A stretch of DNA of 17,048 nucleotides from a virus (Duplodnaviria; Heunggongvirae; Uroviricota; Caudoviricetes): positions 1-17,048 of IMG/VR virus record IMGVR_UViG_2713896834_000007; one strand, 5' to 3'. The notes under the pieces are model-generated. The model was not told the origin of the DNA and did not search any database. It saw only the letters and a program-made list of their open reading frames with translations. Positions 1 through 17,048 of the stretch are shown one piece after another; position 1 is the stretch's first letter, and the number at the start of each line of letters is the position of its first letter. The position numbers and the translations under genes were made by a program.

Positions 1-1254
1 ATGCTGGAACAAATGGGCATTGCCGCGAAGCAAGCCTCGTATAAATTAGCGCAACTCTCCAGCCGCGAAAAAAATCGCGTGCTGGAAAAAATCGCCGATG
101 AACTGGAAGCACAAAGCGAAATCATCCTCAACGCTAACGCCCAGGATGTTGCTGACGCGCGTGCCAATGGCCTTGGCGAAGCGATGCTTGACCGTCTGGC
201 ACTGACGCCCGCACGGCTGAAAGGCATTGCCGATGATGTGCGCCAGGTGTGTAACCTCGCCGATCCGGTGGGGCAGGTAATCGATGGCAGCGTACTGGAC
301 AGCGGCCTGCGTCTTGAGCGTCGTCGCGTACCGCTGGGGGTTATTGGCGTGATTTATGAAGCGCGCCCGAACGTGACGGTTGATGTCGCTTCGCTGTGCC
401 TGAAAACCGGTAACGCAGTGATTCTGCGTGGCGGTAAAGAAACCTGTCGCACTAACGCGGCAACGGTGGCGGTGATTCAGGACGCCCTGAAATCCTGTGG
501 CTTACCGGTGGGTGCCGTGCAGGCGATTGATAATCCTGACCGTGCGCTGGTCAGTGAAATGCTGCGTATGGATAAATACATCGACATGCTGATCCCGCGT
601 GGTGGCGCTGGTTTGCATAAACTGTGCCGCGAACAGTCGACGATCCCGGTGATCACAGGTGGTATAGGCGTATGCCATATTTATGTTGATGAAAGTGTAG
701 AGATTGCTGAAGCATTAAAAGTGATCGTCAACGCGAAAACTCAGCGTCCGAGCACATGTAATACGGTAGAAACGTTGCTGGTGAATAAAAACATCGCCGA
801 TAGCTTCCTGCCCGCATTAAGCAAACAAATGGAGGAAAGCGGCGTGGCATTACACGCAGATGCAGCTGCGCTGGCGCAGTTGCAGACAGGCCCCGCGAAG
901 GTGGTGGCTGTTAAAGCGGAAGAGTATGACGATGAGTTTCTGTCATTAGATTTGAACGTCAAAATCGTCAGTGATCTTGACGATGCCATCGCCCATATTC
1001 GTGAACACGGCACACAACACTCCGATGCGATCCTGACCCGCGATATGCGCAACGCCCAGCGTTTTGTTAACGAAGTGGATTCGTCCGCTGTTTACGTTAA
1101 CGCCTCTACGCGTTTTACCGACGGCGGCCAGTTTGGACTAGGTGCGGAAGTGGCGGTAAGCACACAAAAACTCCACGCGCGTGGCCCAATGGGGCTGGAA
1201 GCACTGACCACTTACAAGTGGATCGGTATTGGTGATTACACCATTCGTGCGTAA
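1..1254 (+). CDS. proA: Gamma-glutamyl phosphate reductase (glutamate-5-semialdehyde dehydrogenase), complete
   Basis: 417 aa ORF beginning [25 protein letters not shown], which I recognise as enterobacterial ProA; full length with TAA stop at 1252-1254; tRNA-Thr lies downstream as in the E. coli proBA-thrW locus. Confidence 0.93.
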
Positions 1255-1368
1255 ATAAAACCGGGTGATGCAAAAGTAGCCATTTGATTCACAAGGCCAT
1301 TGACGCATCGCCCGGTTAGTTTTAACCTTGTCCACCGTGATTCACGTTCGTGAACATGTCCTTTCAGG

Positions 1369-1444
1369 GCCGATATAGCTCAGTTGGTAGAGCAGCGCAT
1401 TCGTAATGCGAAGGTCGTAGGTTCGACTCCTATTATCGGCACCA
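1369..1444 (+). tRNA. thrW: tRNA-Thr (anticodon CGT), thrW-type; prophage attachment site
   Basis: 76 nt GCCGATATAGCTCAGTTGGTAGAGCAGCGCATTCGTAATGCGAAGGTCGTAGGTTCGACTCCTATTATCGGCACCA; acceptor stem GCCGATA/TATCGGC, anticodon loop CATTCGTAATG gives anticodon CGT, T-arm GGTTCGACTCC, 3' CCA encoded; integrase gene starts 15 bp downstream. Confidence 0.9.
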
Positions 1445-1458
1445 TTTAAATCAATAAG

Positions 1459-2622
1459 TTACACATCATTAGTACCTTCCTTATTTTTTGACTGGGACAA
1501 ATTTGGGACCGATGGGTTCAGGATCGAGTCTATTTGCCGTGCGTGTTCGGTAAGGTGATTAGGTGCAAGGTGAGCATATCGACGAACCATTTCGATAGAC
1601 TCCCAGCCTCCCATTTCCTGTAACACTGACAACGGGACTCCGGCTTGAACCAGCCAACTTGCCCAGGTGTGTCTCAAGTCGTGAAATCTGAAATCATCAA
1701 TACCAGCCCGTCTCAGCGCCGCTTTCCAGGCTGTGTTTGCGTCATACCGCATCTTCCTTACTGTTGGCGCTTTCGTTCCGTCTGGTTTGGTACAGCTTTC
1801 CTTGTACACAAATACCCAACGGTGATGATTCCCGATTTGTTTTTTCAATACGCGACATGCAGTATCATTCAGCGCAACGCCAATTGCGCGGTTTGATTTA
1901 CTCTCTTCCGGGTTTATCCATGCCACCCGGCGCTGCATATCTATTTGTTGCCATTCAAGGTTGATGATGTTCGAGCGTCTTAAGCCTGTTGCCAGTGCAA
2001 ATTCAACAACAGACTTTAATGGCTCCGGACATTCATCAATCAGCCTTTGTGCTTCATGGGGCTCCAGCCAGCGGATCCGTTTATTCTTTGGTTGAGGCAC
2101 TTTAATAATTGGTGCCTTATCCAGCATTTTCCATTCACGCTCTGCGGCTCTTAGTAGGGCCTTTATAAATGAAAGATGCGTAGCCTTCGTTGCAACGGAC
2201 GCTGGTTTTGGCGTGTATTCTGGAACAGGTTTCCCTTTTTTTCTGCATGCTTCTGCCCTGAGTTTCCAGTTTTCCTCATGACGCCGGTTCGTCATTTTCT
2301 GCATTGCTGAATAAATTTTTGATTCAGTAATGTCTCTTAGTTGCATTCCTGCGAAATGTTGAAGCCAGAATCCGATCCGGCTTTTGTCATCGTCCAGTGA
2401 TTTTTTATGTGCTTTCTCTTCAAGCCACCTGACACACGCTTCCTCGAACGTTATATCAGGTATTTCACCAAGTTTGCTGACCCGCCATGCTTCAGCCTTT
2501 AGCTTGTCATGGAGTTCTGTCGCCTGCCTTTTGTCCTTTGTTCCAAGAGACTGTTTAAATCTTTTACCGTTCGGCAATGTGAAACTGGCGTACCATATTT
2601 CACCTCTGCGGAAGAGTGACAT
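1459..2622 (-). CDS. int: Site-specific tyrosine integrase, phage P22 Int family
   Basis: 387 aa, [46 protein letters not shown]..., near-identical over long stretches to P22 integrase as I recall it; catalytic region [10 protein letters not shown] ... VRRYAHL; adjacent to tRNA-Thr, the P22 attachment site. Confidence 0.93.
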
Positions 2623-2849
2623 TTTCTTTCCTCTGTTATGCCATCACCCGCGCTCACCTGGACAGTATGCAGCGGAGATTGAAGAGCCGCAATGCAGGCT
2701 TGTCGTGTTGTGAGGTAAGGAGATTTATTCTTAGTGGGATCTTTGCGTGTTGCCTGAAGACGCCCTGTGCGTATCCAGTTAATGGCAGTCGGTCTGGATA
2801 TCTTGAGAAAATGACAGGCCTCATCGAGTGTGAGGCTGTATGGCTCCAT
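2499..2849 (-). CDS. xis: Excisionase (P22 Xis-like), 116 aa, overlapping the 5' end of int
   Basis: Internal Met of the 144 aa ORF: [32 protein letters not shown]... (HTH); start ATG at 2849-2847 overlaps the stop of the upstream gene (TAATG); 124 nt overlap with int is typical of int-xis pairs. Confidence 0.82.
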
Positions 2850-3154
2850 TATTTCACCTCTTGCTGTGACATTGTTGAGAAATGGATACCAGCTCGTTGC
2901 TGCCAGACGATCCAACCGAGAGTCATATCCCATGCCATGTATTCGTTATCGCCGTTTTTTGCTCTCCGACGATCTACTAAGTCACCAAAACGCTTTTCCA
3001 TGAATAATTCATAAGCTTCGCGTTCATCTGGTTCTACTTCCAGAGATAGGAGTGCGATTTCATAAGCACGGCGCTCAATATCGTCTCGCACGTCAAGGCT
3101 GCTGATACGCTCTTTAATTTCTTTAATCAGTTCTTTGTCGGTAAAAGTGGTCAT
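2849..3154 (-). CDS. yfdT: Early-left operon protein, YfdT-like (101 aa), function unknown
   Basis: 101 aa ORF translationally coupled to both neighbours; size and position match the K-12 CPS-53 yfdT gene as I recall it (assignment by recollection, not search). Confidence 0.55.
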   Translation of the reverse strand: MTTFTDKELIKEIKERISSLDVRDDIERRAYEIALLSLEVEPDEREAYELFMEKRFGDLVDRRRAKNGDNEYMAWDMTLGWIVWQQRAGIHFSTMSQQEVK

Positions 3155-3516
3155 TATGCTCCAGCCTCCGGTGCTTTTGGCATTACTGCCCAGTGAGTGA
3201 TATTGACGTTTTCAAGGTCCCCGACCTGAAATGTCCACTGCCATTCTCCGGTTTCTTTTTGTCCCCAGGTGTACCAGAGAGAACGCCAGCCAATCAGCCA
3301 GCCTTCTCCGTTAGCATCGAATAACAAAACACTTTCATTTGCTGGTGGCAGTTCAGTTGACACTGGTATTACTTTGTTTTCCAGTGCCGCACATTTAGCT
3401 TCAAGCGCGTCGAATTTACGTACCAGGTACTCAGCATTTGTTTCGTTCACTTTCAGATCTCGCGGTACACATTTCCCGCGAAGAAACCCTTCCATTTCGA
3501 AAACATTCATGCGCAT
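3154..3516 (-). CDS. yfdS: Early-left operon protein, YfdS-like (120 aa), function unknown
   Basis: 120 aa ORF; overlaps downstream gene start and upstream gene end; size/order match CPS-53 yfdS by recollection. Confidence 0.55.
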   Translation of the reverse strand: MRMNVFEMEGFLRGKCVPRDLKVNETNAEYLVRKFDALEAKCAALENKVIPVSTELPPANESVLLFDANGEGWLIGWRSLWYTWGQKETGEWQWTFQVGDLENVNITHWAVMPKAPEAGA

Positions 3517-4043
3517 TTGCGTAACTCCGATAACTCGTTAAAACGTTCCATAAACATCCCGTAGGCATGGCTAGGTGCCAGTGGAATCACGTTGAACATC
3601 TCTGTTGCCGGGATGCCTTCCAGTACAGGCCAGAAAGAGCCATCATCAAGCCCGAGATCGCGGCGTTCGGTTGCCAGCATGATAAGATCGGCATATTTCA
3701 CGGGCGTACTCATAACTGGGGGTAACCCGTATTTCTCACGGATTACGGCGTCAATTTTTTCTTCCATCCGTTTATAGTCAGGCAGAAGGCGTTTCAGTGG
3801 AGCGGGAATATCCTGGCAATACGCTTCTGTTGCATCATGCATTAACGCTTCAAAAGCAAATTCCTGCGGCACCAGCTGGCTGCAAAGCACCGCATGTTGG
3901 GCGACACTGTAGAAGTGAGAAAGATGACCGGCAAAGCGGCAGATATTTGAAAGGGAAACCGCGATATCGTTAATCACGATGTCGTCTTTATTTATCTTGT
4001 CATAATAAAAATGCTTCCCGGAAAAAGTTTTAATAAATGACAT
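3507..4043 (-). CDS. yfdR: HD-domain phosphohydrolase (YfdR-like 5'-deoxynucleotidase), 178 aa
   Basis: H...HD metal-binding signature (SVAQHAVL ... EALMHDATEAY); start chosen at MSFIKTF (ATG 4043-4041) preceded by GGAGAA RBS rather than the upstream in-frame ATG at 4070; 178 aa matches K-12 YfdR. Confidence 0.7.
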   Translation of the reverse strand: MSFIKTFSGKHFYYDKINKDDIVINDIAVSLSNICRFAGHLSHFYSVAQHAVLCSQLVPQEFAFEALMHDATEAYCQDIPAPLKRLLPDYKRMEEKIDAVIREKYGLPPVMSTPVKYADLIMLATERRDLGLDDGSFWPVLEGIPATEMFNVIPLAPSHAYGMFMERFNELSELRKCA

Positions 4044-4136
4044 TTTGTTCTCCACGTATATGCGCTGCACCGCGCTGAGTTTGGGTAAAAGGAAGCCCTC
4101 ACCATCCGGTGATTATTGAGTTAATTACGTTTCCAT

Positions 4137-4158
4137 AAATGCCCCCGCAGGGGCATTT
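4137..4158 (-). terminator. Intergenic hairpin between yfdQ-like and yfdR-like (possible partial terminator or RNA stabiliser)
   Basis: Perfect inverted repeat AAATGCCCC-cgca-GGGGCATTT in the 127 nt gap between the two genes; downstream U-tract is weak (TTTATGG on the minus strand). Confidence 0.3.
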
Positions 4159-4170
4159 GCAGTAATGAAA

Positions 4171-4995
4171 TCAGGCGGTGAAAGTACCAATAAAGGTTTC
4201 TACTTTGCTGTCTTTGAATTTTTCAACAAGCAGATCACGAAATTCGTTAGCCATTTCTTCCTGCACTGCTTCCAGCTGAATAATGCGCAGAACCAGTACA
4301 GGGCGATCACCAGTGATAATGCTGAGGCGTAATTTAAACGGACGTTCTTTCAGGCCTTCAAACGGAACGCATTTAAACTCAAATGCTACTGGCATAATGT
4401 CTTTGGTTTTCGCTTCGACAGACTCCATCAGAGAGCGTTTGCCGCTGAAGTCATTGTCTTCAAAATCAGCGGTCTGGTTTGCTTCAATCGTGATTTTACG
4501 GACCGCCGCAGCCGCTTTTGTTGCCTGAATGGCGTCACCATTAGCATCAAAGCCCACAAGGTAGTCGGCCCAGTCTTCAATCCATTCTGCCAGTGACTTC
4601 TGGGAGTTACGCTCGCCGTTAACAGACAACAGGGCAGAGAACGGTGCTGTCTTTTTCAGTTTGAGAGTGGCGGTGTTATCTGCGTGACCTGGTTCATCAA
4701 TAGTACCCAGGTTAAGCACACTGACGGCACGCATATTATCAGCATCGATAAAGCAGCGGGTGCCTTCATCTGCAAGATCTTTAGAATAACGGGTAAAATC
4801 ATCGATGCTGGCAGTGGAAAGCGCGCCACGGAAACGGAAGCGATTTAAATTAAATTTTTCCAGATCATGAATGCGGAAATTCTCAGGCAATGCCACAGCA
4901 TCGGCACCAATCTTACTGATAATTTCATTAACACCCTGAGCAGAAATAAGGGCATGGATTTGATTAATTGCGGTTGCGTCTAAGTTCTGAGACAT
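4171..4995 (-). CDS. yfdQ: YfdQ-like protein (DUF2303-type), 274 aa
   Basis: 274 aa [24 protein letters not shown]...; size and position match K-12 CPS-53 YfdQ by recollection. Confidence 0.65.
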
Positions 4996-5060
4996 AATAA
5001 GTCCTCACTATATAAAGATATTCAGTGATGAGATAAATAATCAGTTAATTAAGAACGATA

Positions 5061-5423
5061 TTAATGACCTGCTGCGCGTAGTTTTCCGTCAGGTTCACCG
5101 GCAAGAGTCAGTAATTGTCCCTGGTCTTTCTGCAGAATAGTCAGGCGACCACCGCGATTGACATACATCGGCGTTTCGGTGGTGTCTTCTTCGGAAATTT
5201 TCCCGCGGTTAGTCGGGCGAACATATGAGAGTTTGTGTTTGATTTTCACACGGTTCTCATCAAATGGTTCGATTTCCAGGTTGAGTGAGACCTTACCTTT
5301 GGTTTTCGTGTTCATCACACCGGAAGCGACTTCACTGAGAACTGCGCCGATTTTGGTTTCAAATACGCCGCCGTCCAGCTCCCCGATAAATGCCTGCACA
5401 TCAGTACTGCGTTCGCTAGCCAT
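5061..5423 (-). CDS. yfdP: YfdP-like protein, 120 aa (first gene of the early-left operon)
   Basis: Start placed at internal MASERSTDVQAFIGELDGG (ATG 5423-5421) with GAGGAA RBS 8 nt upstream; the 77 codons upstream in the 197 aa ORF read as junk and run into the structured leader. Confidence 0.6.
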   Translation of the reverse strand: MASERSTDVQAFIGELDGGVFETKIGAVLSEVASGVMNTKTKGKVSLNLEIEPFDENRVKIKHKLSYVRPTNRGKISEEDTTETPMYVNRGGRLTILQKDQGQLLTLAGEPDGKLRAAGH

Positions 5424-5555
5424 TTTGCTGTTCCTCATCATATCGACCCTGCAAGGTCGGTTGGTTTCTCCACAAAACAGAGAAGAACACCTGCGGTGGC
5501 AGCCGCCCGGATGGATTGGGTTATGAGCCCGTCGTCCGGTGATGCTCTTCTCTGT

Positions 5556-5607
5556 TTTGTAAAAAGAGCGGTACCAGCCGGAAGCAAGTGTACAAACTGG
5601 TACCGCC
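5556..5607 (-). terminator. Intrinsic terminator within the PL leader (leftward transcription)
   Basis: Minus-strand RNA GGCGGUACCAG-[loop ~19 nt]-CUGGUACCGCU followed by CUUUUUAC; 10 bp perfect stem (plus 5568-5577 pairs with 5597-5606) with a U-tract only on the minus strand. Confidence 0.5.
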
Positions 5608-6000
5608 AAAGCAGTGGCTGTTGTGGTGGGGTTGTCACTCAGGCGTATGGTCAACCTGACAATCCGGTGTCCTCAACGGGGAAAGAGTAACCCCGCCATA
5701 CTTACCGCCGCGCCATTTCGCGGATTACCACAACGCTGAGAGCACTTAGCCAGTTACGGCACCACACTTTGTCGCGGCTCCATAAATGCCCTCATCGTTG
5801 CACCCTGGTCTCTTCCCAGGCGTCAAACCGAATCGCCACGCTGGTTAGGCGTCTTATCAGCATCATCATTGACTTGCACATTCCGGCTACCTGGTTTGTT
5901 TGCCCGAGCAAGGAGTGGATTGTCCCCTTTAACGTCCCCAGACCGCTAACGACGCATGTGCCATACGCCGTGTTACAACCAAATTTTGTTAGTACCTTGT

Positions 6001-6080
6001 TTGTTTGTCTGGAAAGAAAGATAAAATGAAGTTGCGCATTATGCAAGTGTTTTTGTTGCGAGATATGCAATTTAAAGGGT
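6001..6080 (-). promoter_or_regulatory. Putative OL/PL: leftward early promoter with operator sites
   Basis: Two 15 bp TTGC-N7-GCAA sites (TTGCGCATTATGCAA at 6033-6047; TTGCGAGATATGCAA at 6055-6069) sharing the TTGCG half-site found at OR; minus strand shows TTGCAT -35-like hexamers. Exact -10/-35 assignment is uncertain. Confidence 0.45.
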
Positions 6081-6087
6081 AATGAAA

Positions 6088-6105
6088 AGCCACCTTTGGG
6101 TGGCT
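6088..6105 (-). terminator. Terminator hairpin downstream of the repressor gene
   Basis: AGCCACC-tttg-GGTGGCT 7 bp stem located 21 nt past the cI-like stop, followed on the minus strand by UUUCAUU. Confidence 0.45.
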
Positions 6106-6125
6106 AATTGATGAGGAGGTAAGGG

Positions 6126-6818
6126 TTAATTGTGTCGCTTAAGGGTTTGTGACTGGCTGATTAAGACCTTTCCAAAGACCATAAACCGGTGTTCATTTTC
6201 GCTGGTAATTCCCCATTCACGGTAAATCTGGTTATCAGAAATCACCAGTAGTTTGTCAGGTATCATTTGCAGTCGTTTGACATAAATTTTATCATCAAAA
6301 CCAAATACATAGATACCATCTCCATCAAACTGATTGATACTGACATCAACGAAGATGAGATCTCCTGGCTCAATGGTTGGACACATACTGTCCCCACGAA
6401 CGTTGATAACTTTAATGTGATTGGCTGGCCGTCCGCCAAACATCGATACAGCATTATCAGTTCTGTATTCAATGGCATGAATCACATCAATGACATCACC
6501 GCCCTGGATAAGGCCATTTCCCGCACTGGCACTGACATCCAGCATTTCAATACGGAATACATCCTTCACCTGCGCAACATCCTCACTAATACTGTTTTTA
6601 CATACAGTATTACTTTTGACGTCTGAGGTAAAGAGATCAGCAATATCAACACCTAAGCTCCTGGCAATATTACTCAGGGCTTGTTCAGTGAATTGTTTCT
6701 GCTTACCTGTTTCCAGGCGTGAGATATTCGCCGCATCCACTCCTATTGCTTCAGCGAGATCGGCGATTTTCATGTTCTTCGCCTGGCGAAGTTGTCTGAC
6801 TCGGTTTCCTATGTTCAT
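6126..6818 (-). CDS. CI-like prophage repressor (N-terminal XRE-family HTH + C-terminal S24 LexA-like peptidase domain)
   Basis: 230 aa; N-terminal VRQLRQAKNMKIADLAEAIGVDAANISRLETGK HTH; C-terminal VRGDSMCPTIEPGDLIFVD (Ser nucleophile) and YVKRL (Lys) typical of autocleaving S24 repressors; divergent from a Cro-like gene. Confidence 0.9.
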   Translation of the reverse strand: MNIGNRVRQLRQAKNMKIADLAEAIGVDAANISRLETGKQKQFTEQALSNIARSLGVDIADLFTSDVKSNTVCKNSISEDVAQVKDVFRIEMLDVSASAGNGLIQGGDVIDVIHAIEYRTDNAVSMFGGRPANHIKVINVRGDSMCPTIEPGDLIFVDVSINQFDGDGIYVFGFDDKIYVKRLQMIPDKLLVISDNQIYREWGITSENEHRFMVFGKVLISQSQTLKRHN

Positions 6819-6915
6819 GCGTTTATTACATTTCTTTATTGCGCGTTAAGCAAATCAACTTGCGCAAAATATTTGCGTGAAATAATATGCTCATCACGCA
6901 ATATGTGGAGGTCAT
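6819..6915. promoter_or_regulatory. OR region: divergent PR/PRM promoters with repeated operator half-sites
   Basis: TTGCGCGTTAAGCAA (6839-6853), TTGCGCAA (6860-6867), TTGCGTGA (6873-6880) and inverted TCACGCAA (6893-6900); PR candidate -35 TTGCGC (6860-6865), 17 nt spacer, -10 TAATAT (6883-6888), GGAGG RBS before cro ATG at 6916. On the other strand TTGCTT-17 nt-TGTAAT ends 6 nt before the cI ATG, suggesting a leaderless cI transcript as in lambda PRM. Confidence 0.6.
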
Positions 6916-7176
6916 ATGCAATCACCATTACGGAATGTGCGTAAGGCGCACGGATTTACTTTGCAGCATGTTGCTGCTGGCGTTCAGGTCAATCCAGCGA
7001 CGCTGAGTCGTATTGAAAGACTGGAACAAATTCCATCTATAGATCTTGCAGAACGTCTGGCCAATTTTTTTAAGGGTGAAATCAGCGAAATGCAGATTCT
7101 TTATCCGGCACGTTTTCAATCTAGCCAAAACCAGAATGGGTTTAAACCACAGGAACAGGAGGTAAGCCGTGGGTAA
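6916..7176 (+). CDS. Cro-like HTH transcriptional regulator (XRE family)
   Basis: 86 aa; HTH LRNVRKAHGFTLQHVAAGVQVNPATLSRIER; first gene of the rightward operon opposite the repressor. Confidence 0.8.
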   Translation: MQSPLRNVRKAHGFTLQHVAAGVQVNPATLSRIERLEQIPSIDLAERLANFFKGEISEMQILYPARFQSSQNQNGFKPQEQEVSRG

Positions 7177-7726
7177 TCATCACTGGAAAGTGGAAAAACA
7201 GCCTGAGTGGTACGTGAAAGCTGTCAGAAAAACTATCGCGGCGTTGCCGGGGGGTTACGCTGAAGCTGCTGAGTGGCTGGATGTAACAGAGAACGCATTA
7301 TTTAACCGCCTTCGTGCCGATGGCGATCAGATTTTCCCGCTGGGATGGGCAATGATTTTACAACGTGCTGGTGGCACTCACTTCATTGCTGACGCTGTGG
7401 CGCAGTCTGCAAATGGCGTCTTTGTGTCTCTTCCTGACGTCGAGGATGTGGACAATGCCGATATTAACCAGCGTTTACTGGAAGTCATTGAACAGATCGG
7501 CAGTTATTCAAAACAGATTCGTTCGGCAATCGAAGACGGTGTAGTGGAACCGCATGAGAAGACAGCAATTAACGACGAGCTGTACCTCTCAATTTCGAAG
7601 CTGCAGGAGCATGCAGCACTTGTCTACAAAATTTTTTGCGTTTCAGAAAGTAATGACGCCCGCGAGTGTGCAGCTCCGGGCGTCGTGGCGTCGATTGCTT
7701 CTGGTTGTGGAGAAACTAACGCATGA
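7169..7726 (+). CDS. CII-like / YdaT-family regulatory protein
   Basis: 185 aa, GTG start with AGGAGG RBS 5 nt upstream; occupies the cII position between cro and the replication gene; region [31 protein letters not shown] resembles the CII/YdaT DNA-binding core. Family assignment by resemblance only. Confidence 0.5.
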
Positions 7727-8081
7727 ACAGTTTAACAACACACTACCGTCGCTCGCAACTGATTGCGCTTCCTGTACCGGGTGGAAAAGCGAAGGTGGAG
7801 TATTGCTATGCAGTAAATGTACCAGGTGACAGGGAAATTGTAACCCACAGCTTTGCTGAGTGGGCTGTGGGGGATTTCAACCGGCAGAAGGAGACAGTCC
7901 TTTGCGACAAGTTAACCGCTGGTTCAAAGATCACTACGGAGTGCCCGTCAGAGTCATTCGTTGGGAGCCGGAAACACAACGGGTTATCTACCTCCGCGAA
8001 GGCTATGAGCATGAGTGCTTCAGCCCGCTCGAACAGTTTCGTCGTAAATTCAGGGAAGTAGAGGTCGGTCATGAGCACTAA
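7723..8081 (+). CDS. Hypothetical small protein; two overlapping frames (7723-8061 and 7860-8081), possibly frameshifted
   Basis: Frame beginning at 7723 (ATGA overlap with upstream stop) reads protein-like for about 50 codons then becomes low-complexity ([15 protein letters not shown]); the -1 frame from 7860 reads protein-like in its C-terminal part ([37 protein letters not shown]) and overlaps the replication gene start. Confidence 0.35.
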
Positions 8082-9012
8082 ATTAACCGGCTATGTATGG
8101 GATGGTTGCGCTGCATCAGGCATGAAATTATCCAGCGTGGCAATTATGGCCCGCCTGGCTGATTTCAGTAATGACGAAGGTGTGTGCTGGCCATCAATTG
8201 AAACCATTGCCCGCCAGATTGGCGCGGGGATGAGTACCGTCAGAACGGCTATCGCACGGCTGGAAGCAGAAGGCTGGTTAACGCGTAAGGCGCGTCGCCA
8301 GGGTAACCGCAATGCGTCGAATGTTTATCAGCTTAACGTTGCGAAGCTTCAGGCAGCGGCATTTTCTCAACTGTCAGATTCTGACCCGTCAAAATCTGAC
8401 GCATCAAAATCTGACCCGTCAAAATTTGATGCGTCGAAATCTGGCAAAAAAGCGGGTTTTCACCCGTCAGAATCTGGTGGGGATCCGTCAGTAAAATCAA
8501 AACATGATCCGTCAGATAAAAAAACTTCTCGTCCGGACGCTTCGCAACCGGACACGCAGACGGCTGAACAGGATTTTTTAACTCGCCATCCTGATGCGGT
8601 TGTATTCAGCCCTAAAAAGCGCCAGTGGGGAACGCAGGATGATTTGACCTGTGCACAGTGGCTCTGGAAAAAAATCATTGCCCTGTACGAGCAGGCCGCC
8701 GAATGTGACGGCGAGGTGGTTCGTCCCAAAGAACCGAACTGGACAGCCTGGGCAAACGAAATTCGCCTGATGTGTGTGCAGGATGGTCGTACTCACAAAC
8801 AAATCTGCGAGATGTACAGCCGCGTCAGCCGCGATCCGTTCTGGTGCCGTAACGTGCTCAGCCCGTCGAAGTTGCGGGAAAAATGGGATGAGCTTTCCCT
8901 GCGCTTATCGCCGTCCGTCAGCACGTACACCGAAAAACGCGAAGACCCGTACTTCAAAGCCAGTTACGACAACGTGGACTACAGCCAGATCCCGGCAGGA
9001 TTCAGGGGGTGA
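8071..9012 (+). CDS. Phage replication initiation protein (lambda O-like; N-terminal winged-helix DNA-binding domain, repetitive linker, C-terminal domain)
   Basis: 313 aa; N-terminal KLSSVAIMARLADFSNDEGVCWPSIETIARQIGAGMSTVRTAIARLEAEGWL wHTH; internal SKSDP/SKSDA/SKFDA peptide repeats encoded by DNA iterons; position after cro/cII-like genes. Confidence 0.8.
   Translation: MSTKLTGYVWDGCAASGMKLSSVAIMARLADFSNDEGVCWPSIETIARQIGAGMSTVRTAIARLEAEGWLTRKARRQGNRNASNVYQLNVAKLQAAAFSQLSDSDPSKSDASKSDPSKFDASKSGKKAGFHPSESGGDPSVKSKHDPSDKKTSRPDASQPDTQTAEQDFLTRHPDAVVFSPKKRQWGTQDDLTCAQWLWKKIIALYEQAAECDGEVVRPKEPNWTAWANEIRLMCVQDGRTHKQICEMYSRVSRDPFWCRNVLSPSKLREKWDELSLRLSPSVSTYTEKREDPYFKASYDNVDYSQIPAGFRG
8376..8530. 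repeat. Putative origin of replication: ~15 bp direct iterons plus A/T-rich tract inside the replication initiator gene
   Basis: Four to five tandem units AAAATCTGAC(C/G)C(G/A)TC (about 8376-8450), further CCGTCAG copies and A-rich runs (GGCAAAAAAGCGGG, GATAAAAAAACTTCTC) to about 8530; the same layout as lambda ori inside gene O. Confidence 0.55.
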
Positions 9013-9503
9013 TCATGAGTCTTTTGAATGAAGTTCAGAAATACATTGAAGCCCATCCGGGGTGTACTTCCGGAGACATTGCGGATGCTTTTGCTGGTTA
9101 CTCACGGCAGCGCGTTCTGCAGTCAGCAAGCAAGTTACGTCAGAGTGGGCGTGTGGCTCACCGTTGTGAAGGAGATACACGCAGACATTTCCCGCGCCTG
9201 ACTGAGAGAGCGCAGGAGCCGGAACCACAACCAGTTCGTGAAACCAGACCTGTGCGCAATTTCTATGTCGGCACTAACGATCCCCGGGTAATTTTGTGCC
9301 TGACCCGCCAGGCTGAAGAACTGGAGTCCAGGGGCTTATACCGTCGTGCTGCAACGGTGTGGATGGCGGCATTCCGTGAAAGCCATTCCCAGCCAGAACG
9401 AAACAATTTTCTGGCGCGTCGTGAGCAGTGTTTACGGAAAAGCAGCAAGCGCGCTGTATCGAGTGATGAGTGGTATCTGTCAGGGAATTACGTGGGGGCG
9501 TAA
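9009..9503 (+). CDS. yfdN: YfdN-like / PerC-family-like protein, 164 aa
   Basis: 164 aa ORF overlapping the upstream gene stop; size matches K-12 CPS-53 YfdN by recollection; C-terminal RRAATVWMAAFRES...ERNNFLARREQC segment resembles PerC-type regulators. Weakly supported. Confidence 0.45.
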   Translation: MIMSLLNEVQKYIEAHPGCTSGDIADAFAGYSRQRVLQSASKLRQSGRVAHRCEGDTRRHFPRLTERAQEPEPQPVRETRPVRNFYVGTNDPRVILCLTRQAEELESRGLYRRAATVWMAAFRESHSQPERNNFLARREQCLRKSSKRAVSSDEWYLSGNYVGA

Positions 9504-9829
9504 TGACGACGTTAACTCAATGCCAGCAGCAGGTGCTGGATATGCTGATTTCTTACCAGAAAGAACGTGGCTTCCCGCCAACCAATCAGGAGGTGGCAAC
9601 CATGCTGGGATACCGTTCAGTGAATGCAGCGGTGGAGCATCTTCGCGCACTGGAGAAAAAAGGCGTCATCACGATAAAGCGTGGCGTGGCCCGGGGGATC
9701 ACGCTTCATACCGCGGTGAAGGACGACGACAGCGAGGCGGTCGGTATCATCCGCGCACTGCTTGCCGGTGAGGAAAACGCCAGGCAGCGTGCAGCCCACT
9801 GGTTACATGAGAGGGGCCTGAAAGTATGA
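9503..9829 (+). CDS. LexA N-terminal DNA-binding-domain-only protein (no S24 peptidase domain), 108 aa
   Basis: MTTLTQCQQQVLDMLISYQKERGFPPTNQEVATMLGYRSVNAAVEHLRALEKKGVITIKRGVARGI aligns position-for-position with the E. coli LexA N-terminus ([63 protein letters not shown]); start at ATG 9503 overlapping the upstream stop (TAATG). Confidence 0.75.
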   Translation: MTTLTQCQQQVLDMLISYQKERGFPPTNQEVATMLGYRSVNAAVEHLRALEKKGVITIKRGVARGITLHTAVKDDDSEAVGIIRALLAGEENARQRAAHWLHERGLKV

Positions 9830-10215
9830 AGCTGATCTTGCCTTTCCCGCCCAGCGTGAACACGTACTGGCGACACCCCAACAAAGGGGCGTTTGCAGGT
9901 AAGAGCCTGATAAGCGCGGCGGGGCGCAAATTCCAGAGCGCGGCGTGTGCAGCAATAGTTGAGCAGTTACGTCGTCTGCCAAAACCAACGTCGGCACCTG
10001 CTTCAGTGGAGATCGTGTTGTTTCCTCCGGATAACCGGATCCGCGATCTGGACAACTATAACAAGGCGCTGTTTGACGCCCTGACCCACGCGGGTGTGTG
10101 GGAAGACGACAGCCAGGTGAAAAGAATGCTGGTGGAGTGGGGACCGGTTATCCCGGAAGGGAAGGTCGAGATCACTATCAGTAAGTACGAGAAAACGGCG
10201 GGTGCAGCCGCCTGA
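9826..10215 (+). CDS. rusA: RusA-family Holliday junction resolvase
   Basis: 129 aa; LPFPPSVNTYWRH ... NRIRDLDNYNKALFDALTHAGVWEDDSQV with the conserved RusA Asp cluster; ATGA overlap with the upstream gene; typical nin-region location. Confidence 0.85.
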   Translation: MKLILPFPPSVNTYWRHPNKGAFAGKSLISAAGRKFQSAACAAIVEQLRRLPKPTSAPASVEIVLFPPDNRIRDLDNYNKALFDALTHAGVWEDDSQVKRMLVEWGPVIPEGKVEITISKYEKTAGAAA

Positions 10216-10234
10216 TCAAGAGGAGAAACGAAGT

Positions 10235-11032
10235 ATGAATAATCTGATGGTCATTGATGGTATTGAAGTTCGTCGTGATGCTTATGGGCGTTACAGCCTG
10301 AACGATCTGCACAGGGCTGCTGGTTCTCTGGATAAGCATAAGCCTGCATTCTGGCTCCGCAATGAGCAAACTGAACGTTTAATAAGCGAGTTGCAGATTT
10401 GCAACTCGGTCAATATAGAGCCAGTTAACGTTATTCGTGGCGGAAATAACCAGGGGACGTATGTCTGCAAAGAACTGGTGTATGCCTATGCAATGTGGAT
10501 CAGCCCGTCATTCCATCTGAAGGTGATCCGTACTTTCGACATGGTAACCAGCGCACCGGAAAAATTATCCGGACAGGCTGCTGACAAGATGCAGGCTGGT
10601 GTGATTCTGCTGGACTTTATGCGCCGGGAATTAAACCTGTCTAACTCTTCAGTGCTTGGTGCCTGTCAGAAACTCCAGGAGGCTGTTGGCTTACCGAATC
10701 TGGCACCGCGCTATGCCATTGATGCTCCTGCTGACGCGCCTGATGGCTCAAGCCGCCCCACGCTGTCACTGAGTGCACTGCTGAAGCAGTATGGTATCCG
10801 CCTGACAGCTAATCAGGCATATCACCAGATGGTGAAGCTGGGGATCGTCGAGCAGCGCGAACGATACAGCCGTACCGCGATTAACAACATCAAAAAATTC
10901 TGGTCGCTGACAGCGAAAGGCTGCATGTTCGGCAAGAATATCACCAGTCCCGCAAATCCGCGCGAGACGCAGCCGCATTTCTTCGAATCCCGATTCCCTG
11001 AGCTGTTAAAGCTGCTCGATACCGTTCATTGA
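10235..11032 (+). CDS. KilA-N domain protein (antirepressor-like)
   Basis: Start at MNNLMVIDGIEVRRDAYGRYSLNDLHRAAG with AAGAGGAG RBS upstream; N-terminal KilA-N-type domain (KPAFWLRNEQTERLI ... YVCKELVYAYAMWISPSFHLKV), C-terminal domain unassigned. Confidence 0.7.
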   Translation: MNNLMVIDGIEVRRDAYGRYSLNDLHRAAGSLDKHKPAFWLRNEQTERLISELQICNSVNIEPVNVIRGGNNQGTYVCKELVYAYAMWISPSFHLKVIRTFDMVTSAPEKLSGQAADKMQAGVILLDFMRRELNLSNSSVLGACQKLQEAVGLPNLAPRYAIDAPADAPDGSSRPTLSLSALLKQYGIRLTANQAYHQMVKLGIVEQRERYSRTAINNIKKFWSLTAKGCMFGKNITSPANPRETQPHFFESRFPELLKLLDTVH

Positions 11033-11033
11033 G

Positions 11034-11612
11034 GTGACCGTGAGAGCACTACTGACCCCTGAAATTGCCCCGCGTATGGGGATCGTATTGTTCAGGCCAG
11101 GTTCAGAGTTGATGCCCCTGTTTATGCAGGGGCGTGTCCTGCTGGAGCCTGAGCCGGAACGTTATTCATCTTTCGCCAGTGGTGCAGTTCCGGCGGCATC
11201 ACAACCGCTGGCGGATGATCCTGCCGTTCGGGCCGTGTTCCGCAATGAGGCAGTGATCCGTCGTGCTGGTGGCGTGGAATGTCTTGAAAGCTGGTTACTT
11301 CGTGAAAAAAGCTGCCAGTGGCCTCATTCCGACTGGCACAGCGAGAACATGACCACAATGCGACACGCTCCGGGCGCAATCCGTCTGTGCTGGCACTGCG
11401 ATAACCAGCTGCGCGATCAGTTCACGGAACGGCTGGAATCAATGGCAACGGATAACTGTGCCCGCTGGGTGTTGTCTGTTGTGCGTCGGGATCTCGGTTT
11501 TGATGACAGTCACGTTGTGACAATGCCGGAACTGTGCTGGTGGCTGATTCGTAATGATCTGGCGGATGCCTTTCTGGTGTTGAGTTTGATGGTTCCAGAG
11601 ATATTACTTTAA
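11034..11612 (+). CDS. Hypothetical Cys/His-containing protein; 3' end probably disrupted at the prophage internal deletion junction
   Basis: 192 aa, GTG start; contains CQWPHSDWH ... LCWHCDNQ (possible metal-binding); its last ~18 codons overlap, out of frame, the open tail-fibre reading frame that begins by 11558. Confidence 0.35.
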
Positions 11613-12538
11613 CCGCCGCGCATGTGGCTGCTTTTGCCAGAAGGGCAACGGATACATATGCCGATGCGGATGGTGGCGTTCCCTGGAATGCCGAATCAGG
11701 CGCTTACAATGTCACCCGCTCTGGCGACACCTATATTCTGGTTAACTTCTATACCGGAGTCGGAAGTTGCCGGACCCTGCAGATGAAGGCGCATTACAGA
11801 AATGGAGGTCTGTTCTACCGTTCCTCAAGAGATGGCTATGGTTTTGAGGAAGGCTGGGCAGAAGTTTATACCTCGAAAAATCTTCCACCAGAAAGCTACC
11901 CAGTTGGCGCACCAATCCCGTGGCCATCAGATACCGTTCCGTCTGGTTATGCCCTGATGCAGGGGCAGACTTTTGACAAATCTGCTTACCCGAAACTTGC
12001 AGCGGCTTATCCGTCAGGCGTGATCCCTGATATGCGTGGCTGGATGATTAAGGGCAAGCCCGCCAGTGGTCGGGCCGTATTGTCTCAGGAACAGGACGGC
12101 ATTAAATCGCACACCCACAGCGCCAGCGCATCCAGTACGGATTTGGGGACGAAAACCACATCGTCGTTTGATTACGGCACTAAATCCACGAATAACACTG
12201 GTGCGCATACCCATAGTGTTAGCGGTACGGCTGCTTCAGCCGGTGCACATACCCATTCGATGACATTTGTTTCAGGTGGTTCCAGTGGTGCTCCGGGAAG
12301 TGGATCACCTGATTATTCTAAATACAGTGTTAACACTTCTTCTGCAGGCGCTCATACGCACTCTGTATCGGGTACTGCTGCAAGCGCAGGTGCACACGCA
12401 CATACTGTCGGTATTGGTGCTCATACGCACTCCGTTGCGATTGGTTCACATGGACATACCATCACCGTTAACGCTGCTGGTAACGCGGAAAACACCGTCA
12501 AAAACATCGCATTTAACTATATTGTGAGGCTTGCATAA
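11558..12538 (+). pseudogene. 5'-truncated side tail fibre gene (C-terminal fragment)
   Basis: Reading frame is open from 11558 (after an in-frame TGA at 11555-11557) with no proper start; tail-fibre-like sequence ([12 protein letters not shown] ... repeated [20 protein letters not shown]); first in-frame GTG at 11624; followed directly by tfa. Confidence 0.7.
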
Positions 12539-13122
12539 TGGCATTCAGAATGAGTGAACAACCACGGACCATAAAAATTTATAATCTGCTGGCCGGAACT
12601 AATGAATTTATTGGTGAAGGTGACGCATATATTCCGCCTCATACAGGTCTGCCAGCAAACAGTACCGATATTGCACCGCCAGATATTCCGGCAGGCTTCG
12701 TGGCTGTTTTCAACAGTGATGAGGCATCGTGGCATCTCGTTGAAGATCATCGGGGTAAAACGGTTTATGACGTGGCTTCCGGCGACGCGTTATTTATTTC
12801 TGAACTCGGTCCGTTACCGGAAAATGCCACTTGGTTATCCCCGGAAGGGGAGTTTCAGAAGTGGAACGGCACAGCCTGGGTGAAAGATGCAGAAGCAGAA
12901 AAACTGTTCCGGATCCGGGAGGCGGAAGAAACAAAAAACAGCCTGATGCAGGTAGCCAGTGAGCATATTGCGCCACTTCAGGATGCTGTAGATCTGGAAA
13001 TCGCAACGGAGGAAGAAACCTCATTGCTGGAAGCCTGGAAAAAGTATCGGGTGTTGCTGAACCGTGTTGATACATCAACTGCACCGGATATTGAGTGGCC
13101 AGAAGAACCAGACACCGTGTAA
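12538..13122 (+). CDS. tfa: Tail fibre assembly protein (Tfa)
   Basis: 194 aa; start ATG overlaps tail-fibre stop (ATAATG); N-terminal [62 protein letters not shown] is typical of lambda-type Tfa chaperones. Confidence 0.8.
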
Positions 13123-13133
13123 GCAAAAAAGAA

Positions 13134-13172
13134 AAACCGCAGACACGACGTATGCATGACGTGCTGCGGTTT
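13134..13172. terminator. Bidirectional intrinsic terminator between tfa (+) and the GIY-YIG gene (-)
   Basis: AAACCGCAG ... CTGCGGTTT 9 bp stem enclosing a near-palindromic ATGCAT-centred loop; A-tract upstream (GCAAAAAAGAAAAA) and T-rich downstream, so each strand sees a hairpin followed by a U-tract. Confidence 0.6.
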
Positions 13173-13191
13173 ATGCTTATCACTTAAAGAC

Positions 13192-14010
<819 letters not shown>

Positions 14011-14371
14011 TCATTGCAAGGGCTCACAACCAGTAGTGTTGAGAAAACCATCGGAGAAATGAGGCTAAGCCTTTGAATTTACATAGTACAAAAAAGATAC
14101 TTTTCCTCATAATGTGAGCTAATTTTATGTTTCGTTTGATGATTGGACCGGTCTCGAAAACCGTAGACACATAGTATGCGTTAATTTATGAACAAACTAC
14201 TTGTCTGCTGTTTTTCTGTCATTAGTCGTATATAGAATGATTCTCTATGCCTAACAAAGCATCACCAGTGCTAGATTACGTTGTAGTCACTGTTTAAATA
14301 TCCAGATAAAACATTTCCTTCTGGGTTGAATGAGTGATAAAGTTTCACCCATTAGACCCCTTGGAGGAATT

Positions 14372-15805
14372 ATGTCTGAATTTGAAGTGTTGGCACAGCA
14401 TCTGCTGAAGGAAGCCGAGGCGGAAGAAAAGCTGCGACAGGAAAATGATAAAAAGCTTATCGAGAAAGTGCTGGAAATCTATGATCAGAAGTATGTGGCT
14501 GAATTACTGAGAAAAGTCGGAAAAAATGAGTGGAGCCGTGAAACCATTAACCGCTGGATTAATGGCAAGTGTTTACCAAAATCGTTGACTTCAGTAGAAG
14601 AGTCTCTTCTGCGTAAGATGCTACCAGAACCACCTGCAAACCATCCGGAATATGCTTTCCGCTTCATTGACTTATTTGCTGGAATTGGAGGGATACGGAA
14701 AGGTTTTGAGGCCATTGGAGGCCAGTGTGTTTTTACCAGTGAATGGAATAAAGATGCTGTGCGTACATACAAGGCCAACTGGTTTAACGATGAACAGGTG
14801 CATAAATTCAATCTCGATATTCGGGAAGTCACGCTGAGTGATAAAACCGATGTATTGGAAACGGATGCTTATGCATATATTGATGAGCATGTGCCGGATC
14901 ATGATGTGCTTCTTGCGGGGTTCCCGTGCCAGCCATTTAGCCTTGCTGGTGTTAGTAAGAAAAACTCACTTGGTCGTGCGCATGGTTTTGAATGTGAAGC
15001 ACAAGGAACACTTTTTTTTGACGTGGCACGTATTATACGAGCAAAAAAACCGGCAATTTTTGTGCTGGAAAATGTCAAAAATCTGAAGAGCCATGATAAG
15101 GGTAAAACTTTCAAAGTCATTATGGAGACCCTTGACGAGCTGGGCTACGAAGTTGCCGATGCTGCAGAAATGGGAAAAAACGATCCAAAGATTATCGATG
15201 GGAAGCATTTTTTGCCTCAGCATCGTGAACGCATTGTTCTGGTCGGATTTAGACGAGATCTGAATATTCACAAGGGGTTTACCTTGCGTGATATCAGTCG
15301 TTTTTATCCGGAACACCGCCCATCATTTGGTGAATTGCTGGAGCCTGTAGTCGACAGTAAATATATACTTACGCCAAAACTATGGGAGTACCTTTATAAC
15401 TACGCCAAAAAGCATGCAGCCAAGGGGAATGGTTTTGGCTTTGGGTTGGTCAATCCTGAGAATAAGGAAAGCATTGCACGCACACTTTCTGCCAGATATC
15501 ACAAAGACGGATCAGAAATTCTTATTGATCGTGGTTGGGATATGGCAACGGGAGAGGCTGACTTTATGAATGAGAGTAATCAGGCTCGTCGACCACGCAG
15601 GCTGACTCCCCGAGAGTGCGCACGCCTTATGGGATTTGAAAAACCTGGAGGGAAACCATTCCGTATTCCGGTTTCAGATACTCAGTCATATCGGCAGTTC
15701 GGTAACTCAGTTGTGGTGCCAGTATTTGAAGCTGTTGCCAGACTTCTGGAACCCTATATCCTCAAAGCTGTTTCTGCTGATGCTGGTAAGACTGGGCAGC
15801 CTTGA
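14372..15805 (+). CDS. ecoRIIM: DNA-cytosine C5-methyltransferase, Dcm / M.EcoRII-like (CCWGG-type), 477 aa
   Basis: Start taken at MSEFEVLAQ (ATG 14372) with GGAGGA RBS, not the upstream in-frame ATG at 14330; motifs [16 protein letters not shown] (AdoMet binding), [11 protein letters not shown] (catalytic PCQ), [16 protein letters not shown]; long stretches near-identical to E. coli Dcm as I recall it. No vsr follows; it is paired with an EcoRII-like endonuclease instead. Confidence 0.9.
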
Positions 15806-15811
15806 GAACAT

Positions 15812-15834
15812 CTCCCGGCCTTTTAAGCCGGGAG
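15812..15834. terminator. Bidirectional terminator shared by the convergent M and R genes
   Basis: CTCCCGGC-cttttaa-GCCGGGAG perfect 8 bp stem sitting in the 34 nt gap between the two stop codons. Confidence 0.6.
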
Positions 15835-15839
15835 TCAGC

Positions 15840-17048
15840 CTATGATAGTTCAGCGTAAAGCTCTATCAGCTCAGTAATGAATGCTCCGAGCGTTATTAAT
15901 TCTTCTCTAACTGCTTCTGGGTATTTTTTATGTAAAGTTGATGGTACAACGAGTCTGACACCCGCATCTTTCATTTCTCGGTATTGTGCTGAAGAAACAC
16001 CTTCTTGCAGTGTAAATAAATGTACCTGATGGATTTTATCTGCTTCATTCAGTATCTGACGCCAGCGATCTTTGCAGGTGGTCTTTACTGCCAGCATACG
16101 TAAGTTTTCTACAGGAAATTCAACGTTATGATATGCCTCTGCTGAAGGAAACAGGAAATCTGGTTTTTTATTACCTTCAGTAACTGCCTGAGTGGAGAAA
16201 TGCCGTAGTCCGTGCTCGATAAAAAGCTTCTCTAGGTGAAGTTCAAGTGATTTGCCTGCCCTTGATTTACGTCGATTACTGACAGAGTTGGCTAATGCAA
16301 TAAACTCATCTACAGAATCGAATCCTTTCTTAATAATATCAAGAACATGTAATTCCTCGACGAGTAGAAAAATATCATACTCGACACGCCGACGGTCAAT
16401 CAGTTGCTCATCTGGATCCTTGGAGTTTTTAGCATAATGGCCAGCAGCATATTGAATAATTTCGTTTCCAGAAGGAAAACGCTTCTTCCAGTCTTCAGGA
16501 ATAACATATTTATGATTTACTGGAGTTTGCTGAAGAGACAATCCGCCCAAAATTTGTCCGGCAGGGCCGGAAATTAGGGTTCCAGGTATGATTTCGCCAA
16601 TAGCAGACTCGATGATATCCTCTTCATCGGGATTGACGCAGACCCATATATCTACCTCGGAACAGTCAGTGTTCTGTTCGTTTAACCTGAAAGCAAGAAT
16701 TGTGAGGGCTCCTGTATTTTCAGGGTTCTGTAATGGACTTCCTCTCCCCCAGCGCGTAATTCTTTTTTCGTTTCGGGTCTTACCAAAATAACGGTTGTTG
16801 TAATAAATTGCGCGTGCTTGGGTATCAGGGCAATCATGGGATGATACATGCGCAGTAAGGAAGACTGAAGGGTTCAGTTCGCGAGTATGATTGATAGATG
16901 GAAAAAGCTTTTCAACGATATTTGAGGGGATATAAAGTCCGACCTGATGGCCACCTGTTGCGCCTGTGTCGTTTGCAGAAAGGCGTTTGATGTAGATAAA
17001 GTAATTCCCGCTTGCGATATCAAGCAGCCAGTTATGAAAAACCGACAT
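15840..17048 (-). CDS. ecoRIIR: Type II restriction endonuclease, EcoRII-like (complete; start codon at the window edge)
   Basis: 402 aa, MSVFHNWLLDIASGNYFIYIKRLSANDTGATGGHQVGLYIPS... matches the R.EcoRII N-terminus and overall sequence as I recall it (EcoRII is ~404 aa); ATG occupies 17048-17046; convergent with the Dcm-like methyltransferase. Confidence 0.88.
   Translation of the reverse strand: MSVFHNWLLDIASGNYFIYIKRLSANDTGATGGHQVGLYIPSNIVEKLFPSINHTRELNPSVFLTAHVSSHDCPDTQARAIYYNNRYFGKTRNEKRITRWGRGSPLQNPENTGALTILAFRLNEQNTDCSEVDIWVCVNPDEEDIIESAIGEIIPGTLISGPAGQILGGLSLQQTPVNHKYVIPEDWKKRFPSGNEIIQYAAGHYAKNSKDPDEQLIDRRRVEYDIFLLVEELHVLDIIKKGFDSVDEFIALANSVSNRRKSRAGKSLELHLEKLFIEHGLRHFSTQAVTEGNKKPDFLFPSAEAYHNVEFPVENLRMLAVKTTCKDRWRQILNEADKIHQVHLFTLQEGVSSAQYREMKDAGVRLVVPSTLHKKYPEAVREELITLGAFITELIELYAELS

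Follow-up and report, generated by a model that had tools for sequence, protein, structure and literature searches.

EcoRII is among the best-characterised Type IIE restriction-modification (R-M) systems. The active site of its endonuclease consists of E271, D299, K324 and E337, in the numbering of the 404-amino-acid (aa) protein (PMC2770665), and autorepression of M.EcoRII through a fused N-terminal repressor domain is established (Som & Friedman 1994, as summarised in PMC12707154); what that summary reports for EcoRII is autoregulation of the methyltransferase gene only. Dcm, the chromosomal methylase of Escherichia coli, abolishes the post-segregational killing caused by EcoRII (work cited in PMC3874152), and conjugation is restricted by EcoRII only when the donor is dcm-minus (PMC11602122). 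A second described system, CMoRE, is the same as PD-T4-3, a Type IV nuclease that degrades the 5-hydroxymethylcytosine (5hmC) or 5-glucosylhydroxymethylcytosine (5ghmC) DNA of T-even phages and binds 5-methylcytosine (5mC) or plain DNA much more weakly (PMC12923530); activity of PD-T4-3 in a native host is on record in the literature. Here, we analyse a 17,048-nucleotide stretch of DNA from a tailed phage (IMG/VR record IMGVR_UViG_2713896834_000007, positions 1 to 17,048; hereafter the window), whose right-hand end carries a methyltransferase gene (M) and an endonuclease gene (R) of the EcoRII type next to a CMoRE gene. Residue conservation, gene order, distribution and purifying selection all support our reading of this locus as a functional EcoRII-type Type IIE R-M module within a CMoRE defence cassette on a prophage remnant, to which we give a probability of about 0.85.

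R encodes a protein of 402 aa that begins with MSVFHNWLL, and the gene is convergent with M. The preliminary description of this DNA, made from the letters alone, had equated this gene with R.EcoRII from its N-terminus onwards, and the alignment agrees: residues 1-401 match PDB 1NA6 (R.EcoRII) without a gap at E=1e-242, with 346 of 401 positions identical (86%). Both halves of the protein are recognised by Pfam, as EcoRII-N (residues 16-163, E=4e-61) and EcoRII-C (residues 227-391, E=2e-71).

We compared R with the functional residues listed by Golovenko et al. 2009 (PMC2770665), whose 404-aa numbering equals the window R residue number plus 2. R has kept each of the 32 residues that were published as acting in catalysis, recognition, base flipping or the effector domain. 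The four active-site residues are kept (window R residues 269, 297, 322 and 335), as are those that read out CC:GG (K328, D329, R330, N260 and R262) and those that form the pocket for the flipped base (R222, E225, Y226, F229, R265 and A266). The effector contacts K23, N28, H36, Q37, Y41, N61, R81 and Y85 are also present, together with K92, T93, R94, E96, R98, T100 and R101, and with R88 and Y308 (404-aa numbering throughout). The effector N-arm (27-42) is identical to that of 1NA6, while the C-arm carries five substitutions relative to the 1NA6 chain, one of them at the engineered R88A position and none at a contact residue. Because all the published functional residues are conserved, the inactivating substitutions that the preliminary description had named as grounds for rejecting the pair are absent. 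This conservation suggests that R would cleave unmethylated CCWGG in a manner dependent on a second bound site.

The longest open reading frame (ORF) of M, read directly from the ORF listing, starts at an ATG at 14330, ends at the stop at 15805 and encodes 491 aa. A GGAGG at 14363-14367 lies 4 nt 5' of the ATG at 14372, which gives a protein of 477 aa, the length that RefSeq also assigns to the identical protein WP_001288444.1. The in-frame ATG at 14330 is kept in the plasmid allele and lacks a Shine-Dalgarno sequence. By eye only, a possible extended -10 element (TGaTAAAGT, 14335-14343) overlaps that ATG and would put the start of M transcription downstream of it.

Pfam finds the full DNA_meth_N profile (PF18284, profile positions 1-57, residues 42-98 of the 491-aa ORF, E=7e-27) and DNA_methylase (PF00145, E=5e-78) in M, and it scores 927 bits with the NCBIfam model PRK10458 Dcm, whose cut-off is 710. 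All motifs are intact, namely FAGIGG, PCQ (P185-C186-Q187, with Cys186 as the catalytic cysteine), ENV (233-235), QHRER and GNSV. Plasmid M.EcoRII aligns collinearly with M from end to end at 90% identity, the stretch between motifs VIII and IX included, whereas the identity of M to chromosomal Dcm is just 65%. The R of the plasmid used for comparison is 96.5% identical to 1NA6, and this allele is therefore a fair stand-in for the prototype. Alignment, Pfam and RefSeq length thus agree with the earlier view of M as a Dcm/M.EcoRII-like enzyme of 477 aa with a start backed by a ribosome-binding site and with PCQ and ENV motifs.

A search of the window by tblastn with E. coli Vsr returned a best match of E=0.46, compared with 1e-107 for the positive control, and only chance matches were likewise obtained in an intact prophage, a circular phage genome and a plasmid locus. 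The gene is thus missing after M, as had been noted before, and an orphan dcm-vsr locus is ruled out by this absence together with the convergent R gene. With both enzymes full length, their functional residues intact and no vsr, the locus holds a complete EcoRII-type CCWGG R-M pair and not an orphan Dcm. The coordinates of the features are collected in Table 1.

Table 1. Features of the R-M module, the defence cassette and the surrounding prophage remnant, in window coordinates.
Feature	Coordinates	Strand	Basis or remark
ecoRIIM-like gene (M), 477-aa C5-cytosine methyltransferase	14372..15805	+	90% identity to plasmid M.EcoRII, all motifs
ecoRIIR-like gene (R), 402-aa Type IIE restriction endonuclease with EcoRII-N effector and EcoRII-C catalytic domains	15840..17048	-	86% identity to 1NA6
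Perfect 8-bp GC-rich inverted repeat with 7-nt loop	15812..15834		between convergent stop codons
M leader/promoter region common to plasmid EcoRII loci; left boundary of exchanged R-M module	14288..14371	+	alignment
A/T-rich divergent intergenic region	13966..14287		GC 34-36%
CMoRE/PD-T4-3, Type IV GIY-YIG nuclease, divergent from M	13192..13965	-	second defence gene of cassette
Tail-fibre gene remnant (C-terminal part) and tail-fibre assembly gene	11624..13122	+	Pfam Collar/Phage_fiber/gp37_C, Caudo_TAP
Junction of 27.5-kb internal prophage deletion	11571..11572		DUF968 gene to tail-fibre gene
Prophage integrase	1459-2622	-	attL end of cassette-carrying prophage
tRNA-Thr (thrW)	1369-1444	+	attL end of prophage

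The stop codons of M and R are 34 bp apart, and the gap contains the hairpin, made of CTCCCGGC (15812-15819), the loop and GCCGGGAG (15827-15834). In a 56-nt context it folds at -18.2 kcal/mol on the plus strand and -20.4 kcal/mol on the minus strand (z = -1.9 and -2.4, respectively), and the plasmid allele keeps it as a stem of 6-7 bp. The hairpin had been described as a perfect bidirectional terminator. The stem is indeed perfect; the terminator is not borne out, as neither strand has a T-run after the stem and the terminator scan consequently makes no call there. An intrinsic bidirectional terminator would require a GC stem followed by a T/U-tract on each strand, of which the stem alone is present, and the label was therefore not accepted in that form.

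Homology with about 580 plasmid EcoRII loci (~80% nucleotide identity) starts abruptly at ~14288, 84 bp before the M start. Within this M leader 72 of 84 positions are identical to the plasmid allele (86%), compared with 56 of 144 immediately upstream. On the other side, homology with the plasmid loci ends ~75 bp upstream of the R ATG, as seen in related loci; the window ends exactly on that ATG, and the R promoter and leader therefore lie outside it. These homology edges indicate that the exchanged unit is a compact module of ~2.8 kb with its own short regulatory leaders.

The intergenic region 13966-14371 has a GC content of 35.5%, compared with 48% for the whole window, which matches the A/T-rich region already reported upstream of M. 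Its part up to ~14179 is common to loci with CMoRE only, whose matches end at window positions 14163-14179, and the segment ~14180-14287 is specific to the combined CMoRE and R-M cassette. By analogy with M.EcoRII, the N-terminal domain of M may repress its own promoter, and the M leader is a putative operator on the strength of the M.EcoRII literature. The only feature seen there by eye, CCAGA-N13-TCTGG, is too short to weigh.

Across 5,426 complete E. coli genomes, the prophage R allele (at least 99% identity) occurs in 263 records. Those sampled are nearly all chromosomal, with the allele beside a prophage attachment (att) site at thrW or ssrA. Prophages with this allele occur in ~4.5-5% of complete E. 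coli genomes, strains of ST131, ST95 and O103 among them. The plasmid-type R (~79% nucleotide identity) is found in about 320 E. coli records, and a third, chromosomal EcoRII-like allele (~69% nucleotide identity) is found in a few E. coli genomes (NZ_CP122768.1 and NZ_CP135959.1). R identity among complete E. coli genomes is sharply bimodal, at either 99% or more or ~79%. The exact R and M proteins are each encoded on at least 1000 public contigs (RefSeq), under generic names. Among 50,697 deposited phage genomes, megablast with the R-M DNA gave no match, and tblastn with R found only Burkholderia phage KL3 and two faecal fragments, all below 40% identity. We found no published description of the prophage allele in the literature searched.

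Comparison of the prophage and plasmid alleles gave ratios of nonsynonymous to synonymous substitution (dN/dS) of 0.034 for M and 0.042 for R, at a synonymous divergence (dS) of 1.5-1.8, which is saturated. Such low ratios at this dS indicate a long divergence and strong constraint on both genes. A recent transfer from plasmid to phage is ruled out by the ~20% nucleotide divergence, the saturated dS and the bimodal identity.

The window runs from proA through thrW and the integrase into lambdoid early genes. An intact counterpart is the ~43-kb thrW prophage of KKa014, in which the tail-fibre gene and the tail-fibre assembly gene are followed by the GIY-YIG gene, M and R and then by the attR side. 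Window positions 1-11572 are 99.8% identical to KKa014 and positions 11571-17048 are 100% identical, and the two parts lie 27,474 bp apart there, with a clean switch and a 2-bp overlap. The switch is flanked by a truncated DUF968 ORF (11034-11612) and by a tail-fibre remnant (11624-12538) that corresponds to the 3' part of the tail-fibre gene (3351 bp) in KKa014. Thus, the prophage in the window has lost its Q, lysis, head and tail genes and has kept the cassette. None of the complete E. coli genomes contains the junction, and scanning the GTDB species representatives for the exact 37-mer gave 0 matches. The deletion is either a strain feature or an assembly artefact; the clean junction with its 2-bp overlap looks biological.

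The pair had been called prophage cargo. This holds: in the intact prophages examined, the block lies between the tail-fibre assembly gene and the att site. The prophage in the window is itself a deletion remnant. In SA186 and CFSAN064035 the cassette is carried by lambdoid siphovirus-type prophages at ssrA, and in Z1323MEC0002 by an e14/SfV-like myovirus-type prophage at the same site. CFSAN061772 (NZ_CP042893.1, 1120768-1135564) contains a decayed ssrA prophage with M and R intact and the GIY-YIG gene (CMoRE) lost; its decay, which includes fused portal and tape-measure pseudogenes, is independent of that in the window. CT01 (NZ_CP081794.1), a circular phage genome of 43.7 kb deposited as a plasmid, has R directly beside attP-DinI-int and is probably an excised or circularised prophage. 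It carries terminase, capsid, sheath tail, integrase and repressor genes and so represents a complete temperate phage genome. In all, three circular records of 30-44 kb that were deposited as E. coli plasmids have the cassette at 99% identity (NZ_CP081794.1, NZ_CP081704.1 and NZ_CP104634.1).

This location bears on whether the pair might serve the lytic cycle of the phage, with R degrading the DNA of the host or of competitors and M protecting the progeny from hosts with EcoRII plasmids. The same has been proposed for the EcoRII-C/Vsr/methylase module of KL3 (PMC3091744), our module lies just downstream of late tail-fibre genes, and the E. coli records with the plasmid allele are hosts that the progeny could meet. 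However, each gene has its own leader, conserved with the plasmid system, and that system is no element of a lytic cycle; the target sites are already methylated by host Dcm, and the chromosome of a dcm+ host would be resistant to R anyway. The cassette is moreover kept in prophages that can no longer make virions. We therefore consider a lytic-cycle role very improbable.

The region upstream of R was read in the related loci. The -10-like box of R is TATAAC in the intact prophage, compared with TATAAT in the plasmid allele. Between this box and the R start there is a direct repeat, ATGTTAAC-N9-ATGTTAAC, at positions 3861-3868 and 3878-3885 of the KKa014 locus, of which only the second GTTAAC is kept in the plasmid allele. 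An in-frame ATG-TAT stands just before the R ATG (KKa014 locus 3892-3897, immediately outside window position 17048), so that a 404-aa form is also possible for the prophage allele, the window being cut at the 402-aa start.

The immediate upstream neighbour of R in most lysogens is ssrA, a highly expressed gene, and the R start is ~235 bp from ssrA in every one of the ssrA lysogens examined. Upstream of R, the thrW prophage of KKa014 has kept ~25 nt from the 3' end of ssrA together with the strong intrinsic terminator of that gene (KKa014 locus 3640-3668 and 3791-3814, ~230 bp upstream of R), in a sequence identical to that of the ssrA-integrated lysogens. This remnant in a thrW prophage indicates that the cassette end derives from an ssrA-integrating phage, and thus that this end of the prophage has a mosaic origin.

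These observations raise the question of whether the module is functionally silent, with R unexpressed or inactive and M a redundant second Dcm. The departure of the R -10-like box from TATAAT would fit such a state, as would the strong terminator, which insulates R from upstream transcription. On the other hand, R is intact and at least 99% conserved across the 263 records, and it has kept all functional residues at a dN/dS of 0.04 relative to the plasmid allele. A silent module is thus quite improbable, and under the reading of a functional module R would be expressed in the lysogen.

A dcm-like match is present in 5367 of the 5426 genomes (~99%), and all 60 of the 60 chromosomes sampled among the best-matching hosts have exactly two M-like places. 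The two places suggest that these hosts carry the prophage M and, by inference, chromosomal dcm. The preliminary description had proposed that Dcm-positive hosts would tolerate the module, and the second dcm-like place in the sampled hosts fits this proposal, as do the published results on EcoRII (PMC3874152, PMC11602122); the tolerance is sound and already known for the prototype. Since such hosts are already dcm+, their chromosome would be protected beforehand, so that lysogenisation would be safe and loss of the module would not be lethal.

The early region of the prophage (window 1451-11571) contains 29 CCWGG sites, compared with ~19 expected from base composition. CCWGG is thus not depleted there, which is consistent with life in Dcm-methylating hosts, and no avoidance of the site is seen in that region. 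The R-M module contains just two CCWGG sites (15644 and 16582).

Dcm in the hosts also bears on the alternative that the module is mainly a selfish addiction element, one that stabilises itself and the prophage remnant by post-segregational killing and does not act in defence. Killing of this kind is documented for EcoRII (PMC3874152), and M and R have remained intact in two independently decayed prophages, that of the window with its 27.5-kb deletion and that of CFSAN061772. Yet Dcm neutralises EcoRII-mediated killing (PMC3874152), and with a second dcm-like locus in all 60 sampled hosts, loss of the module should be harmless there. An addiction element is for these reasons an improbable account of the locus.

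Although the R-M pair of the preliminary description was upheld, that account had overlooked a known defence nuclease in the same cassette. The product of the gene divergent from M matches PADLOC PDLC04031 (PD-T4-3) over its full length (E=8e-140) and likewise PDB 9U75/9U7U (E=5e-171), and the GIYxY-YIG tyrosines Y17, Y19 and Y31 were read directly in its sequence. CMoRE, M and R stand side by side in 244 genomes, compared with the 263 records that hold the prophage R allele, and CMoRE alone is present in ~600 further genomes.

If the pairing of CMoRE with the EcoRII-type module has been selected, it would form a two-sided check on the state of cytosine, in which incoming DNA passes only with plain 5mC at CCWGG. 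Unmodified phages and foreign plasmids would fall to the R-M module, and the T-even phages that escape R-M by hypermodification would fall to CMoRE. Under this hypothesis, its position beside an att site would let the cassette pass from one temperate phage lineage to another and persist after such lineages are gone. We regard selection of the pairing as a tentative and rather doubtful idea; the pairing may instead have arisen from a single recent origin followed by hitch-hiking.

Several observations weigh against the reading of a functional defence module. The M leader contains no inverted repeat of 8 bp or more that could be an operator palindrome, and the intergenic hairpin is followed by no T-tract on either strand. 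With TATAAC in place of TATAAT, expression of R could be weak. As ~99% of the genomes have a dcm-like gene and DNA from dcm+ donors is not restricted, the benefit against the DNA of other E. coli is questionable. Finally, all copies of the cassette are at least 99% identical, and the linkage to CMoRE may therefore reflect one recent origin and not selection.

We propose the following model for a functional module. M would methylate the inner cytosine of CCWGG. R would work as a dimer, whose N-terminal B3-like effector domain would bind one unmethylated CCWGG and thereby release the autoinhibited C-terminal catalytic domain, which would flip the central A/T pair and cut a second site. The two genes, each with its own short conserved leader, converge on the conserved GC hairpin, and the 2.8-kb module would form, together with CMoRE, a two-system defence cassette at the tail-fibre/att end of temperate coliphages. 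In a lysogen, incoming DNA without 5mC at its CCWGG sites would be destroyed by R, and incoming DNA with hmC or ghmC in place of cytosine by CMoRE.

The mechanistic weight of these findings is little, given how well EcoRII is known and that the proteins are already catalogued. What modest value they have lies in ecology: an EcoRII allele that is distinct and diverged long ago resides in E. coli prophages and is almost always linked to CMoRE. By published results, host dcm neutralises the killing and much of the barrier function of such a module. The locus thus offers a natural case for asking what R-M contributes when a species-wide orphan methylase pre-empts it, and why defence cassettes persist when their prophage decays.

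Compared with the crystallised CMoRE of E. coli O157:H7, the protein in the window is full length and differs by a handful of substitutions; CMoRE is known as a single-gene system, whereas in the cassette it has an R-M module as its physical neighbour. The chromosomal dcm-vsr locus encodes a methyltransferase of the same family as M, with an N-terminal DNA_meth_N domain in both and, by inference, the CCWGG target in common. It differs in its 65% identity, in the overlapping vsr and in having no paired restriction gene, and M coexists with chromosomal dcm in the same genomes.

The nearest precedent in a phage is the module of KL3, which also combines an EcoRII-family nuclease with a C5 methylase on a temperate phage. 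The nuclease, called an EcoRII-C endonuclease in its paper (PMC3091744), matches just the catalytic half of R (residues 169-395, 39% identity). In KL3 the genes of the module, vsr among them, all point the same way, whereas M and R are convergent and without vsr. Like M, the methyltransferase of the SsoII/Ecl18kI-type systems is a C5 enzyme to which a DNA-binding regulatory region is fused at the N-terminus, and the catalytic core of their nuclease is related to that of R (2FQZ, E=2e-4). These systems are divergently transcribed and target CCNGG, and their methyltransferase controls both genes via a defined operator.

The closest system is plasmid EcoRII itself (IncN/IncF-type; PDB 1NA6/3HQF/3HQG), which shares with the prophage allele the convergent M/R order, the protein lengths (477 and 402/404 aa) and the domain architecture. 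The functional residues, the intergenic hairpin, an M leader of ~85 bp and an R leader of ~75 bp are also common to both. The two alleles have diverged to ~80% nucleotide identity and to 86% (R) and 90% (M) amino-acid identity, and while the prototype resides on conjugative plasmids, the prophage allele is chromosomal, beside an att site and linked to CMoRE.

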